In this document: one piece after another, positions 7,416 through 64,000 of the stretch
Position numbering within the stretch: the first letter of the stretch is position 1
How the letters are laid out: each line of letters starts with the position of its first letter
Assembly (NCBI GenBank): GCA_016932555.1
Contig: JAFGCQ010000004.1
Span: 990 to 64,989, forward strand
DNA from: Candidatus Zambryskiibacteriota bacterium
GTDB taxonomy: Bacteria; Patescibacteriota; Minisyncoccia; Phycocordibacterales; WO2-35-19
DNA: 64,000 bases
Direction: 5' to 3'
Notes under the pieces: model-generated
Told to the model about the DNA's origin: nothing
What the model saw: the letters and a program-made list of their open reading frames with translations, nothing else
The model's database searches: none
Position numbers and translations under genes: made by a program

Positions 7416-10052
<2,637 letters not shown>

Positions 10053-23211: not shown

Positions 23212-23433
23212 TTAATTTTTAATTCTTTTAACATTTGATACATGTATCGGTGCGGCTTGATCAACTATTTTACCTTTTTCGTTACTCTTTTTTCTGCGTT
23301 GATGAACTTTTTTAATATTTATTCCTTCAATTAAAACCATGTCTGATTTAGGAAAGGCGCGTAAAATTATACCAGATTTACCTTTATCCTTACCAGTTAA
23401 TACTTTTACTTTATCTCCTTTTTTTACATGCAT
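23212..23433 (-). CDS. rplX: 50S ribosomal protein L24
   Basis: [19 protein letters not shown] motif. Confidence 0.85.
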
Positions 23434-23437
23434 ACTC

Positions 23438-23537
23438 TCGAATATTACGAATAAGATCGAATAATACGAATCCTATTTTTGCTATTAATTTGATTGTTCT
23501 TTATTTGTAGCATTCGATTAAATTTGTGGTTATTCGC
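23438..23537 (-). repeat. 100-nt intergenic element, copy A (between rplN and rplX)
   Basis: 99/100 identical to 33287-33386. Contains four CGAAT motifs about 9-10 nt apart. Confidence 0.9.
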
Positions 23538-32736: not shown

Positions 32737-33282
32737 TTATATCTTCTTTACCTGCAAAAAGTCAAGCTCTACTGGAGTTTCGCGACCAAACATTGGGACC
32801 AAAACTTTAACCTTACCTTGTTCTTCATTAACTTCACCCACCTTGCCTTCCAAATCTTTAAAGGGTCCATCTATAATCCTTACTGATTCATCAAGAGAAA
32901 GATCAATATTATGTTTTACTTTATCAGAATGCATCCTGTTAAATAGCTCCTCTATTTCTTTTTTATCCAAAGGTACCGGAAAAACTCCAGCGCCAACAAA
33001 TCCTGTTACTCGAGGAGTGTTTCGAACCACATACCAAGAATCATCAGTTACAATCATATCTACCAGTACATAACCTGGATAAATTTTTTCTTCCTCTTCA
33101 ACTCGTTTATTACCCTTTATCTTGATCTTTTTTTCAGTTGGGACAATAACATCAAAAATTTTATCCTCCATACCCAAAGATTCTATGCGCTGTTTTAGAT
33201 TTCTCATTACAGCATTTTCATAACCAGAATAAGTATGAACAGCATACCAATTTCTTTCGCTTCTTATTTGTTGTTTGCTCAT
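32737..33282 (-). CDS. nusG: Transcription antitermination factor NusG
   Basis: [17 protein letters not shown] domain and C-terminal KOW. Confidence 0.9.
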
Positions 33283-33286
33283 ATGA

Positions 33287-33386
33287 TCGAATATTACGAA
33301 TAAGATCGAATGATACGAATCCTATTTTTGCTATTAATTTGATTGTTCTTTATTTGTAGCATTCGATTAAATTTGTGGTTATTCGC
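33287..33386 (-). repeat. 100-nt intergenic element, copy B (between secE and nusG)
   Basis: 99/100 identical to 23438-23537, same orientation relative to the operon. Confidence 0.9.
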
Positions 33387-57305: not shown

Positions 57306-57656
57306 ATGACAAGAGTTCATAATATCCGCAAACTTTCAGATCGCAGGAAAGAATTACGAAAAAACCAAACAAAAACCGAAGAAAAACTCTGGTGGTATTT
57401 GAAAGATAAGAGGCTGGGAATTAAATTCAGAAGACAGCACAGTATAGGAGGATATATTTTAGATTTTATATGCAAAGAAAAGAAATTGATTATAGAAATT
57501 GATGGTAGAGTACATTTGAAAAAAGATAATAAAGAATACGATAAAGTTAGAGACAAATATTTTGAAGAGTTAAATTATAAAGTTCTGAGATTTACGAATG
57601 ATGAGGTTGAAAATGGGGTTAAAGAGATTATTGATGTTATAAAGCGGTATCTTTAA
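57306..57656 (+). CDS. DUF559 (Vsr-like) endonuclease-domain protein
   Basis: TEEKLWWYLK...FRRQHSIGGYILDF...IEIDG..H...D..RD..L...GY.VLRF pattern. Confidence 0.8.
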   Translation: MTRVHNIRKLSDRRKELRKNQTKTEEKLWWYLKDKRLGIKFRRQHSIGGYILDFICKEKKLIIEIDGRVHLKKDNKEYDKVRDKYFEELNYKVLRFTNDEVENGVKEIIDVIKRYL

Positions 57657-57702
57657 CCCCCACCCCTCAATTCGTGTAGCCCTTCTCTTGATCAGGGGAG
57701 GG
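57657..57702 (-). repeat. Family B GC-rich element, inverted copy
   Basis: Its reverse complement aligns along the whole length of 58407-58451 (about 80 percent by eye). Confidence 0.75.
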
Positions 57703-57724
57703 AAAACCAAAATCATACAAAAAG

Positions 57725-57770: not shown

Positions 57771-58322
57771 TTATATCAAAATCCTCCCATTATACTCATG
57801 GAACCCGATTTCTCCACTGGTAGCCGTGAAAAAAATATGCTCCATTCCAGCAAAATTTTCGAATCCGCCCCCGAGAAAAATAGTGTTTTCATACTTAAGA
57901 AGGTTTTTATCATAGTTTCCTACACGAGTATCATTATAAAAACCGTGTGTAGCTAAACCTCGTCCACCATGGAATTCACGTTGTTTGTAGGCGTAATTAA
58001 GCGCCATTTTCAAAAAACTGATCACTTCCTTAGGATAACATCCAGAATAAGACATCCACCACACGGCCATCCATCTTCCTCTGGGTCTGAACCTATAAAA
58101 GATAGTGGTTGTACCGGCGGAAAAATCTGAAAGCGGTGTCACACAATAGTGATCTACCACTTTGTAGTTACCGGATACAAAAGTGATTCTTTTGTATCCG
58201 CTAGATTCTATGACTTTAACAGAATTCTTTTTGTTTCCAGCATATCCGTCAAGCATAGCATCGAAGAATACTTTTTCTGCTTTTTGAATGATTTTCTTTC
58301 TCTGTTTGGACTCTAGTTCCAC
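57771..58322 (-). CDS. Hypothetical protein, DUF5680-like (tentative)
   Basis: Pattern ...AMLDGYAGN...W.MSYSG....EVISFLK.AL...FHGGRG recalls DUF5680. From memory only. Confidence 0.4.
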   Translation of the reverse strand: MELESKQRKKIIQKAEKVFFDAMLDGYAGNKKNSVKVIESSGYKRITFVSGNYKVVDHYCVTPLSDFSAGTTTIFYRFRPRGRWMAVWWMSYSGCYPKEVISFLKMALNYAYKQREFHGGRGLATHGFYNDTRVGNYDKNLLKYENTIFLGGGFENFAGMEHIFFTATSGEIGFHEYNGRILI

Positions 58323-58406
58323 TGTTGGCTCCTTTCACCCATTAGGTCTGACTCAGGTTATACAACAATATAAAAATTAAAGCAAGAATAAAAAATACCG
58401 CGCGTT

Positions 58407-58451
58407 CCCTCCCCCGTCCAGGGGGAGGGCTACACGAAGTGAGGGGTGGGG
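58407..58451 (+). repeat. Family B GC-rich element abutting the secY stop codon
   Basis: CCCTCCCC-CGTCC-AGGGGGAGGG hairpin plus CTACACGAAGTGAGGGGTGGGG tail. Confidence 0.75.
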
Positions 58452-58452
58452 A

Positions 58453-59724
58453 TTAATATTCTCTTGCAGAGATTTGAGCATCAACTTTTTTAACGAGATC
58501 AAGAACCACTGAAACTACGATAAGAAGTCCTGTACCGCCTATAGCCACTGCGCTGATACCAGTAGCCGCCCTTACTATTAAAGGCAAAACAGCAATTAAT
58601 CCCAAGAAAATAGCGCCAATCATGGTTAAACGGGAAAGGATTTTGGCTATATATGAGGAAGTCGAGGAACCGGGTCGAACTCCCGGAATAAAAGCACCGC
58701 CTCTCTGTAAATTTTTGGAAAGATTCTCCGGATCAAAAGTAATAGCTGTGTAGAAATAAGTAAAAACAAAAACTAATAAGAAGTAGGCAATGCCATAAAA
58801 AATCTGGTTAGAAAGCAAAGCAAGTAGAAATTCAGAAATCTTTTGGATTATAGTATTGTCTACATTAGCTAAAAAGCGGATTATCATTTGAGGAAAAAGT
58901 AATATGGAAAGAGCAAAAATTATAGGAATCACCCCAGCTTGATTAACTCTTAAAGGTAAATAAGTGGAAACTCCACCATACATTTTATTACCTCTAACTT
59001 GTTTAGCGTAAGTTATCGGTATGGGTCTTTCTGCTTCAGTAATAACTACTACACCCCAAATCACTGCTATGGCAGCCGCCAGAAAGCCAATATACATCGG
59101 CAATTGAGATGGATCAAAAGCAAATAAAAGCTGGCTAGTCGCACTGGGTAAAATAGCAACAATGCCGGCAAAAATGATAAGCGAGACTCCGTTACCAATA
59201 CCAAATTCAGATACTAACTCACCAAGCCACATAAGAAGCATTGAACCGGCAGCAATTACTATAAGATTTGTTAGCAATTCAAAACCAGCAAGTTTACTTA
59301 AAACATTCTGATTTTGAAGAAGAATAATAAAAGCATAACCTTGCATTAAAGCTAGAGGCACAGTCAAAAATCTTGAATATTGAGAAAATTTTCTGCGTCC
59401 TAATTCACCCTCTTCTTGATACATAGCCTTGAGTTTAGGAAACATAACAGTCATAAGCTGCATAATAATAGAAGCGGTAATATATGGCGACACACCGAGC
59501 ATAATAATTGAAAGATTAGACAAACCACCACCCGAAAAGATATTTAAAAGTCCAAAGAAATCATTATCAGACATAAACTGCTCTAATTTAAAAGTATCAA
59601 TACCGGGAATTGGGATAGAGGCCATCAAACGGAAGAGAGCCAACATTACAAGGGTAAAAATTATTCTCTTTCTTAAATTTTTATCCCCTAAGACTAATTT
59701 TATTTTGTGAATAAAATTTTGCAT
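58453..59724 (-). CDS. secY: Preprotein translocase subunit SecY
   Basis: Ten-TM SecY sequence; follows rplO. Confidence 0.95.
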   Translation of the reverse strand: MQNFIHKIKLVLGDKNLRKRIIFTLVMLALFRLMASIPIPGIDTFKLEQFMSDNDFFGLLNIFSGGGLSNLSIIMLGVSPYITASIIMQLMTVMFPKLKAMYQEEGELGRRKFSQYSRFLTVPLALMQGYAFIILLQNQNVLSKLAGFELLTNLIVIAAGSMLLMWLGELVSEFGIGNGVSLIIFAGIVAILPSATSQLLFAFDPSQLPMYIGFLAAAIAVIWGVVVITEAERPIPITYAKQVRGNKMYGGVSTYLPLRVNQAGVIPIIFALSILLFPQMIIRFLANVDNTIIQKISEFLLALLSNQIFYGIAYFLLVFVFTYFYTAITFDPENLSKNLQRGGAFIPGVRPGSSTSSYIAKILSRLTMIGAIFLGLIAVLPLIVRAATGISAVAIGGTGLLIVVSVVLDLVKKVDAQISAREY

Positions 59725-62163: not shown

Positions 62164-62349
62164 TTACCAAGAAGCTTTTTTAACTCCTGGAATTCTTCCT
62201 TCGTTAGCAAGTTCTCGAAAACAAATCCGACACAAATCAAAATCTCTCATATAACCTCTACTGCGACCACATTTAAAACAGCGTCTTACAGCTCTGGTTT
62301 TAAATTTAGGCTTTTTTTGAGCCCTTGCTATAACTGAAGTTTTTGCCAT
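62164..62349 (-). CDS. rpsN: 30S ribosomal protein S14, type Z (zinc-binding, 61 aa)
   Basis: [10 protein letters not shown]...CRICFRE Cys motif; ends KASW. Confidence 0.9.
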
Positions 62350-62364
62350 TTCTATTATTAAATC

Positions 62365-62384
62365 CGTCCGTCAGCCGACGGACG
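62365..62384 (-). other. Stem-loop between the RT stop and the rpsN start
   Basis: CGTCCGTC-AGCC-GACGGACG. Confidence 0.5.
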
Positions 62385-62419
62385 AGACCTTCTAAAACTA
62401 ACAAATATATTAAAAAAAA

Positions 62420-63424
62420 TCAAGCGCTTTGCTGTCTTGAGATAACAACGAAGCGTTTACCGTGTCTATTTTTTGGAATGTTTCTATTTAGTTTTTGCAG
62501 TAGTTTAATTTTTAAATCTCTGGAACGGCAGTGATGTAAAAGACCGTTATAAGATGAGAAATTTTTGTCAGTCACCCTATTAAATATTCTTCTTTTAGTT
62601 TTAGTTCTCAAAACTCTATGGTACGGGAAGCAAATATAACCCAAATAATCGATGCCGCTGGCATATGTTTTAAGGATAATTTTTTCAGGGTGGATTTTTA
62701 GCTTCAAATTCTGCCAGCAAAAATCTCGAATCTTAGGTATGCAAGATTCCAGAAAATTTTTATCAGGATGCATCAAAACAAAATCATCAGTATATCTAAT
62801 ATAGCCCTTTACTTTTAAATCATGCTTCACGAACTGATCAAATTTGTTCATAAAAATATTGGCAAATATTTGAGAAGTCAGATTGCCAAGAGGTATGCCG
62901 CAATTGAAACTTTCAACAATGTCCTTGGTTAGGATGATAAGCTCTTTATCAAAAGTCTTTTCCTCTAATATCCGCAGAAGCTTATTATGATCGACAGATT
63001 CAAAAAACTTTCTTATATCCAACTTCAGCACCCAGATAGTTTTGCTGTTATTTCGGGAAATTTTGAGTCCTATTTTGTGGAGTCTTTTAACCGCAGCATG
63101 AGTGCCTTTATATTTTCTGGAAGACCAAGAGTCAAAGATAAATTTTTTATCCCACATTGGCTCTATGACTCTGATTATGGCATGGTGCAAAAGTCTGTCT
63201 CTAACGCTGGCTTTGTTAATGTGCCTCCTTTTGGGATCACTTATATAGAAAGAAAAATATCCGCCATGCCTGTAATTACCGCTTTTCAAATCCTCATGCA
63301 GTTTGAAAATGTTATCTTCCAAACCAAGCTCGAATTCCGCCACATCTTTCTTGCCTCGCTTATCCTTGCGAAACTCAGCCCAAGCGTCGAAGAGATTTTT
63401 TAATGAAATAATTTTTTCAAACAT
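62420..63424 (-). CDS. Diversity-generating-retroelement-type reverse transcriptase
   Basis: RT motifs 1-7 readable: DPKRRHINKASVRDRLLHH, LKLDIRKFFESVDH, GIPLGNLTSQIFANIF, YTDDFVL, GIDYLGY. Start set at MFEKIISLKNLFDAW. Confidence 0.85.
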   Translation of the reverse strand: MFEKIISLKNLFDAWAEFRKDKRGKKDVAEFELGLEDNIFKLHEDLKSGNYRHGGYFSFYISDPKRRHINKASVRDRLLHHAIIRVIEPMWDKKFIFDSWSSRKYKGTHAAVKRLHKIGLKISRNNSKTIWVLKLDIRKFFESVDHNKLLRILEEKTFDKELIILTKDIVESFNCGIPLGNLTSQIFANIFMNKFDQFVKHDLKVKGYIRYTDDFVLMHPDKNFLESCIPKIRDFCWQNLKLKIHPEKIILKTYASGIDYLGYICFPYHRVLRTKTKRRIFNRVTDKNFSSYNGLLHHCRSRDLKIKLLQKLNRNIPKNRHGKRFVVISRQQSA

Positions 63425-63808
63425 ATGAATAGAAACAACAATAATAAAACAGCGGAGCAAACACCATTCTTTCAAGCAGTTTATAAATTGTATCTATCAT
63501 GGTATGTCAGATGCGGACAACTGCCAAAGAAAGACAGGTTTACCATTGGACAGAAGACGGAAAACTTGCTTCTGGAAATTCTCCTGTTAACGGTGACTGC
63601 CTACCACACAAGCAGCTTGGATTTAAAGAGACAATCATTACTCAAAGCCAATACTACTCTTGAATGCGTTAAAATCAGCATTAGATTGGCAAAGGACATC
63701 AAAGCTCTGGAGCAGCATTGGTACATAGATTATCAGAGAAGAATCCAAGAGATGGGCAAGATGCTCGGCGGCTGGATTGCCAGCACTTACAACAAAACGG
63801 GCAAGTAA
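63425..63808 (+). CDS. avd: Avd-like four-helix-bundle accessory protein
   Basis: LPKKDRFTIGQKTENLLLEIL ... IQEMGKMLGGWI pattern; adjacent to the RT. Confidence 0.75.
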   Translation: MNRNNNNKTAEQTPFFQAVYKLYLSWYVRCGQLPKKDRFTIGQKTENLLLEILLLTVTAYHTSSLDLKRQSLLKANTTLECVKISIRLAKDIKALEQHWYIDYQRRIQEMGKMLGGWIASTYNKTGK

Positions 63809-63822
63809 TTTGCCCGTTTTGT
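63792..63822. terminator. 13-bp perfect hairpin with the avd stop codon in its loop
   Basis: ACAAAACGGGCAA-GTAAT-TTGCCCGTTTTGT. Confidence 0.6.
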
Positions 63823-63839
63823 CTGCATGAGAGCGACTT

Positions 63840-63979
63840 CGGAGGGAAACGACACCGAGATTGTCATTCCGATTGTCGGGGTTATTGCCATTGACGTTCA
63901 CGCCATTACGGTCAGCATTGCCGACATACACCAGATTGCCGTCAGAGGCGAGAGTCGTTTCTGCATCACTCCATCCGGA
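63840..63979 (-). repeat. Candidate DGR template repeat (TR; VR not excluded)
   Basis: On the RT strand: aat gct gac cgt aat ggc gtg aac gtc aat ggc aat aac ccc gac aat cgg aat gac aat ctc ggt (NADRNGVNVNGNNPDNRNDNLG). An in-frame TGA at 63980-63982 lies just upstream. Confidence 0.45.
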
Positions 63980-64000
63980 TCAAAGGCCGTAACCGGACAG

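Follow-up and report, generated by a model that had tools for sequence, protein, structure and literature searches.

We report here that the end of a 64,000-nt stretch of the genome of a Candidatus Zambryskiibacteriota bacterium (contig JAFGCQ010000004.1 of GenBank assembly GCA_016932555.1), hereafter the window, holds with high confidence the core of a chromosomal diversity-generating retroelement (DGR) of the type known in Candidate Phyla Radiation (CPR) bacteria. Its architecture is TR-(avd)-RT, consisting of a template repeat (TR), the accessory gene avd, and a reverse transcriptase (RT) gene. The identities of RT, Avd, and TR were observed directly, as were adenine-specific differences between TRs and variable repeats (VRs) in related loci. 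An original prediction, made from the sequence of the window, had read an RT, an Avd protein, and a repeat at the window edge as the core of a targeted hypermutation system. All three parts are real, and this reading is supported. The features of the locus, in window coordinates, are as follows.

62420-63424, minus strand: DGR reverse transcriptase gene, 334 amino acids (aa) from the ATG, with motif 4 GIPLGNLTSQ and catalytic YTDD
63425-63808, plus strand: accessory gene avd, encoding 127 aa and oriented divergently from the RT gene (Pfam bAvd)
63840-63948, minus strand: TR, 109 nt, noncoding (homology to the TR/VR sets of relatives)
63840-63860, minus strand: adenine-free 3' end of the TR, 21 nt, TCTCGGTGTCGTTTCCCTCCG, an end of homology resembling the initiation of mutagenic homology (IMH*-like)
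63949-64000, minus strand: final 52 nt of the TR RNA's structured 5' leader (alignments A3, A4, and A5, covariation, and minimum free energy (MFE) folding)
63826-63833, minus strand: CUCUCAUG segment 3' of the TR, predicted partner of the leader segment UAUGAGAG (helix 4, MFE folding)
63794-63820, minus strand: 11-bp stem-loop AAAACGGGCAA/TTGCCCGTTTT just 3' of the TR, with the opposite-strand stop codon of avd inside it (sequence and MFE folding)

Adenine-specific repeat pairs in related loci

RT-based scans of genome and metagenome contigs recovered 12 related loci (L003-L014). Their RTs are 76-81% identical to that of the window in most cases, and 50% identical in L013. The genome records among the related loci belong to Candidatus Zambryskibacteria (Parcubacteria/Patescibacteria group), the closest of them being Zambryskibacteria genomes from Rifle and from groundwater. 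The window TR is homologous to the TRs of L003, L004, L005, L009, L011, and L015, with 76-82% identity to the verified TRs of relatives and E values down to 1e-34. Every locus with enough upstream sequence contains one to three additional 109-nt copies of the repeat. These copies are VRs. Each is found at the 3' end of a target open reading frame (ORF) that encodes a protein ending in ...LGVVSLR and, on the RT strand, precedes the TR by 0.4-7 kb. Seven loci provided 13 TR/VR pairs, and of the 193 mismatches in these pairs, 185 are located at TR adenines.

Between closely related populations, the targets show 0-3 differences over the first 289 residues, and 8-10 of the last 38 residues differ. 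Different datasets that sampled one and the same organism from the Rifle site (L004 and L008, VR1 at 7977-8085; P0010 and P0013-P0017) contain identical target backbones with different VRs. The combination of identical backbones and differing C termini between samples indicates that this DGR family is actively diversifying in nature.

The cassette has a recurrent order on the RT strand across L003-L023, namely a VWA/CobT_C protein of ~700-760 aa, a protein of ~135 aa, an AAA_5 target, a small target, the TR, avd on the opposite strand, and the RT gene. Both the AAA_5 ATPase target (MoxR/midasin-like, ~670-790 aa) and the TR-proximal target (~320-330 aa) carry a VR at their end and terminate in ...LGVVSLR, and some related loci encode one more small target. 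The original prediction had compared the repeat with those of C-type-lectin folds, but we could not verify such a fold for the target, given that Pfam returned no match for the VR-bearing domain of relatives' targets and that an AlphaFold model of one relative's 331-aa target, with a mean predicted local distance difference test score of 71.8, fell below 50 over the VR tail and gave no lectin match. Flanking genes vary by locus (trigger factor, HNH, AbiEii, and a helix-turn-helix protein; rpsN in the window), which indicates that the module relocates as a unit. Neighbors of mobile-element or defense type also occur in relatives. A large serine recombinase gene is present upstream of the cassette in L015 and L016 (L015:856-2451). 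AbiEii/DUF6922 pairs are located beside the RT gene in L021 (5011-5917) and L024 (2233-2886 and 4061-4949), and in L024 the RT gene precedes the target.

The partner repeat of the window

The original prediction placed the target gene and the partner repeat past position 64000 and proposed that the contig be extended and the repeat aligned to the extension. An exact-protein look-up of Avd and RT returned one Logan contig of 4275 nt (L001, from SRR13394437), which is identical to the window over an overlap of 3986 nt and adds 289 nt beyond 64000. The corresponding look-up of the rpsN product gave no further contig. We searched both strands of the window and the additional 289 nt for a VR by generic repeat finding and by a custom scan in which mismatches at TR adenines did not count. 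The recovered 289 nt hold no copy of the repeat; adenine-specific differences between copies, which the proposed check also concerned, are seen in the relatives. The predicted location fits every related locus: on the RT strand, the VR-bearing targets immediately precede the TR, and the window is truncated on that side, although the window's own VR was unseen. We infer that this VR exists just past the window edge. Candidates for the window target were examined and rejected. Among 38 homologues of a relative's target, none has a VR compatible with the window TR, and the best of these candidates, P0002, with 18 non-adenine mismatches, stems from a different sample.

Several observations weigh against the assignment of the window end to a DGR core or against parts of it. 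No VR was found in 64 kb plus 289 nt by repeat finding or by the adenine-tolerant scan, in which the TR matched only itself. The scanned genome and metagenome collections do not include the source contig, their best match to the RT being 81% identical. The catalytic motif of the window RT is YTDD, but YADD in its relatives L004 and L005. The NCBIfam model DivGenRetAVD scores 67.2 bits against Avd, which is under the curated cutoff of 80, and a sequence search of the PDB with Avd matched no solved Avd. In the leader RNA described below, changes in helix 4 are one-sided only (U-A/U-G), and a priming role of the leader is put forward by analogy only.

Some of these observations would also be compatible with an orphan or decaying DGR core, in which RT, avd, and TR were moved beside rpsN by a rearrangement and the target and VR were lost, so that nothing is diversified. 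Apart from the missing VR in 64.3 kb and the replacement of YADD by YTDD, two points fit this reading: none of the other loci examined has rpsN beside it, all of them having unrelated genes downstream of the RT gene, and the Logan extension fails to align with the relatives' post-VR spacer over its first ~20 nt. By contrast, no part of the element (RT, avd, TR, leader, -10 box, or stem-loop) is disrupted, and the mostly synonymous TR substitutions, together with the avoidance of codon position 3 by TR adenines, point to continued selection on the template. Moreover, relatives' targets lie on exactly the side that is truncated here, and the extension ends a few tens of nucleotides short of the expected VR end. 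We consider the loss of target and VR unlikely, and favor a DGR core with its VR just outside the sequence at hand.

Identification of the template repeat

The original prediction described a repeat at 63840-63979 that resembled the variable or template repeats of DGRs. The block of asparagine codons is real and is a DGR repeat. The repeat proper comprises 63840-63948, however, and 63949-63979 belong to the non-repeated 5' flank of what is specifically a TR and not a VR, as shown by its closed reading frame and TR-specific flanks. From 63948 to 63840 on the minus strand, the TR reads SDGNLVYVGNADRNGVNVNGNNPDNRNDNLGVVSL, and the repeat block is seen as ...SDGNLVYVGNADRNGVNVNGNNPDNRNDNLGVVSLR. 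It contains ten AAY codons and 25 adenines, all of which are at codon position 1 or 2 and none at position 3. The probability that 25 adenines all avoid position 3 by chance is (2/3)^25, or ~4e-5. The window thus has a noncoding, adenine-rich repeat with AAY codons near an RT gene, as DGRs do. In relatives, the stretch corresponding to 63840-63860 is identical between TR and VRs.

A TGA codon at 63980-63982 closes the frame of the repeat, and the block is therefore a noncoding TR, neither the end of a gene nor a VR. In addition, the window copy aligns with relatives' TRs including their TR-specific flanks, which are absent from VRs, and this likewise identifies it as a TR. Differences between the window TR and those of relatives are mostly synonymous in the target frame, a pattern that would be expected of a template still under selection.

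That the block is instead a VR at the 3' end of a target gene leaving the window is suggested by the open peptide that it encodes, which ends in ...LGVVSLR as do the target C termini in relatives. This is highly improbable given the in-frame TGA 32 nt upstream of the repeat, flanks on both sides that fit the TR-specific and not the VR flanks of relatives, and ten AAY codons that are intact as in TRs, when VRs are scrambled. The block also occupies the TR position between leader and avd, and the recovered extension excludes a longer ORF entering it from upstream. GC content rises to 49-52% over TR and leader (L001:3700-4100, window ~63700-64100) compared with 31-39% in the RT and ribosomal protein genes.

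The RT and Avd proteins

The longest RT ORF extends to a TTG at 63475, and the 334-aa protein that begins at the ATG has the N terminus MFEKIISLKNLF. An independent gene call on the Logan contig yielded an identical 334-aa RT. The protein contains both GIPLGNLTSQIFANIF and YTDD, and its IPLGNLTSQ matches the motif-4 signature [ILV]GxxxSQ of DGR-clade RTs. It is matched by Pfam RVT_1 (E value 9.9e-25). Its best match in the PDB is 8ub7_A (E value 2e-41, 145.7 bits, residues 3-285), an entry titled only "Reverse transcriptase" which, judging from its sequence, we take to be the Bordetella phage DGR RT (bRT). Group II intron and retron RTs in the PDB score at most 62 bits. These results bear out the original prediction of an RT with this motif 4 and YTDD. 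By sequence comparison, group II intron, retron, and defense-associated RT (DRT) enzymes are all far more distant from the window RT than the Bordetella DGR RT is.

The original prediction named a grouping of the RT with retron, abortive infection (Abi), or group II intron clades as the outcome that would speak against a DGR, and the similarity scores do not favor such a grouping. An RT of one of these classes or of the DRT defense class, with the small ORF and the asparagine-codon block beside it by coincidence, is effectively refuted and retains a negligible probability: although the group II intron RT/maturase model TIGR04416 is the top NCBIfam match by name (130.4 bits) and several Drt and retron models match weakly, all these scores are far under the curated cutoffs (130.4 of 300 bits for TIGR04416, 70.7 of 200 for Drt3a, 54 of 235 for the retron St85 RT, with Drt2, Drt4, and Drt5 also far under theirs), a generic RT model ranks first in PADLOC, Rfam detected neither a group II intron RNA nor a retron RNA in the TR unit or the whole window, a DGR RT is the nearest solved relative, Avd is encoded next to the RT gene, and RTs that are 76-81% identical to the window RT reside in loci with verified, adenine-specific TR/VR pairs.

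The ORF at 63425-63808 on the plus strand had been proposed to encode Avd, and this was confirmed by a match to Pfam bAvd (60.9 bits against a cutoff of 40). Avd is a feature of most DGRs, though not of all. The start codons of RT and avd abut on opposite strands (CAT immediately followed by ATG, 63422-63427), leaving no intergenic DNA. Back-to-back starts of the two genes are also found in L004, L015-L018, and L021. Because there is no DNA between the starts, either the promoter of each gene lies inside the other gene or the RT transcript is antisense to avd. The TR (63840-63948, minus strand), avd (63425-63808, plus strand), and RT gene (62420-63424, minus strand) together have the architecture B3, that is, TR-(avd)-RT with a reverse-strand avd, which is found in 90% of CPR DGRs (Wu et al. 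2018, PMC5758913).

A structured leader upstream of the template repeat

The ~250 nt that separate the stop codon of the proximal target from the TR exceed the proteins in conservation. This region comprises a leader of ~230-290 nt that is kept in 13 related loci. Its last 52 nt lie within the window, and the rest of it, together with a TAGAAT -10 box, is at 64001-64251 in the Logan extension (L001:3987-4240, minus strand). No copy of the leader other than 63949-64000 was detected in the window by nhmmer.

Alignment A5 contains 14 units, each extending from a TATAAT-like box to the stem-loop, and the structure comprises seven helices from RNAalifold and one long-range helix. Over its 51 pairs, 97.1% of cells are paired, compared with 35-50% when the partners are slid by 1-3 columns. 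Compensatory changes are present in 22 pairs, compared with 2-7 in the slid controls, and none of 500 shuffles reached the observed value. Two helices bracket the TR. In helix 5, leader UUGCGUCGCUCU pairs with GGAGxGACGCAA immediately 5' of the TR; the corresponding segment of the window at 63961-63972 (GGAGUGAUGCAG) pairs with leader UUGCAUCGCUCU. In helix 4, leader UAUGAGAG (~64184-64191 in extended coordinates) pairs with CUCUCAUR located ~7 nt 3' of the TR. Helix 4 is 93.8% paired and is present in the MFE fold of the window sequence on its own. Helix 6 has many compensatory changes, and its loop carries a 66-nt insertion specific to the window.

Folding of the window sequence alone gave an MFE structure with the same helices (z = -6.3). 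Despite its RT identity of 50% and an unrelated target, L013 has the same layout and, on folding, the same bracket topology, with one leader segment pairing in the MFE structure with the 3' flank of the TR and then with its 5' flank. Rfam 15 has no family that matches the TR unit or leader; in the whole window it detected tRNAs only and none of the RT-1 to RT-19 motifs. A small leader ORF, MKDCACHCPRQCISL, was rejected based on L021, in which its ATG is directly followed by TAG. Nothing points to a phage-borne cassette, since the matches of a leader 18-mer in viral contigs were four chance matches inside unrelated coding sequences.

The stem-loop after the TR is kept in relatives with 11-12 bp, and its stem sequence varies by lineage. 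It is likely to be a bidirectional terminator and/or an Avd-binding stem-loop. L003 carries an insertion between the TR stem-loop and avd that consists of a Fic/DOC-family gene with a small partner ORF (L003:8235-9390), and the stem-loop has stayed beside the TR although avd is 1.4 kb away. It follows that the TR unit is separable from avd-RT and that little conserved RNA is possible 3' of the TR.

Genomic context and other repeats

As the original prediction had stated, the DGR is directly upstream of rpsN (Pfam Ribosomal_S14; 62164-62349, minus strand), which begins 70 nt downstream of the RT stop codon on the same strand and is followed by rpsH, rplF, rplR, rpsE, rplO, and secY. The DGR occupies the usual place of rplE before rpsN in the spc cluster. 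The 70-nt gap between RT and rpsN (62350-62419) contains a GC-rich hairpin, tccgtccgtcagccgacggacga, at ~62364-62388, a possible terminator or insulator.

Two further repeats were observed in the window. Inverted repeats of 52 nt that are 85% complementary (57653-57704 and 58405-58456) flank a 183-aa ORF (57771-58322, minus strand) located right after secY, with a weak match to DUF5680 under the cutoff. Together, the ORF and its repeats possibly represent a small mobile element inserted into the ribosomal/secY cluster. A direct repeat of 107 nt has copies at 23431-23537 and 33280-33386 that are 96% identical and separated by 9.8 kb. Each copy is located in an intergenic region on the minus-strand side, and neither is matched by a tRNA or an Rfam family.

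Discussion

In the mechanism that we propose, a promoter ~300 nt upstream of the TR, past the window edge, would drive a noncoding RNA of ~470 nt. This RNA would begin near GGCUAAUG and consist of the structured leader, the TR, a short 3' flank, and a terminal stem-loop, ending at the stem-loop at 63794-63820. RT and Avd would copy the TR into cDNA and misincorporate nucleotides opposite its 25 adenines. The cDNA would then replace the homologous 109-nt VR at the 3' end of one to three targets located upstream on the minus strand, past position 64289; the targets of relatives are a protein of ~327 aa and the AAA_5 ATPase of ~720 aa. By analogy to the Bordetella system, the leader may act as the scaffold, and possibly also as the primer, for cDNA synthesis by RT-Avd, and the stem-loop may end the TR transcript and/or bind Avd.

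Taken alone, the locus is one more CPR DGR beside the thousands catalogued and carries little weight. Its modest interest lies in an organism with a small genome that devotes a conserved module of 8-10 kb to the hypermutation of protein C termini. As seen in relatives, the module combines genes for a VWA protein and a small protein with an AAA_5 target, a small target, and the DGR, and it looks like a diversified sensor or binding system. If the leader is a functional scaffold, reverse transcription by DGRs tolerates a permuted RNA architecture, and the leader RNA would be a concrete, testable RNA for the reconstitution of a CPR DGR.

DGRs are enriched in the CPR, as the original prediction had stated, and include a Patescibacteria-restricted clade with targets that lack recognizable domains (Roux et al. 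2021, PMC8144416). Some CPR DGRs have midasin/AAA-type targets (UVR4 class) or contain ribosomal protein genes (PMC5758913). The window resembles the B3 DGRs of the CPR (PMC5758913; DGR clade 2 of PMC8144416) in its order of TR, opposite-strand avd, and RT. Its relatives share with the B3/UVR4 elements an AAA_5/midasin-like target and small proteins without a recognizable VR fold, share with B3 elements the presence of several targets per TR, and come from groundwater CPR metagenomes, the type of data used in both surveys. The window differs from these elements in representing a separate species-level lineage (RT identity of at most 81%), in its position immediately upstream of rpsN, in its YTDD in place of YADD, in the 66-nt insertion in the leader loop, and in having its targets outside the view. 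A structured 5' leader is not mentioned in the published accounts of CPR B3 DGRs compared here.

In Bordetella, a strand of the spacer 3' of the TR pairs with the TR 3' end and provides the priming adenosine; 2 nt further on, the spacer pairs just upstream of the TR to form a stop duplex, and an Avd-binding stem-loop is located downstream of the TR (bioRxiv 10.1101/2023.10.23.563531). The DGR of Bordetella phage BPP-1 (mtd-avd-TR-brt; PDB 8ub7 series) has an RT homologous to that of the window over nearly its full length, and each element has an Avd partner and a TR that is adenine-rich except for an A-free 3' end. In both, with matching order and polarity, one scaffold strand forms two adjacent duplexes that loop the TR, first on its 3' side and then just 5' of it, and a stem-loop is found just downstream of the TR. 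The two elements differ in the position of avd, which in the window is on the opposite strand between TR and RT, and in their setting: the window element is cellular and, as judged from relatives, has several targets, whereas that of BPP-1 is phage-borne. Only ~45 nt of conserved sequence follow the TR in the window lineage, and the scaffold strand is 5' of the TR, in the leader, whereas it is 3' of the TR, in the spacer Sp, in Bordetella. We tentatively suggest, at somewhat less than even confidence, that in this CPR lineage, and probably across B3 DGRs in general, the DGR RNA is a circularly permuted version of that of Bordetella, in which a strand of the 5' leader pairs with both TR flanks, likely as cis-primer and stop duplex, within a self-contained transcript that reaches to the stem-loop and is separable from avd and RT.

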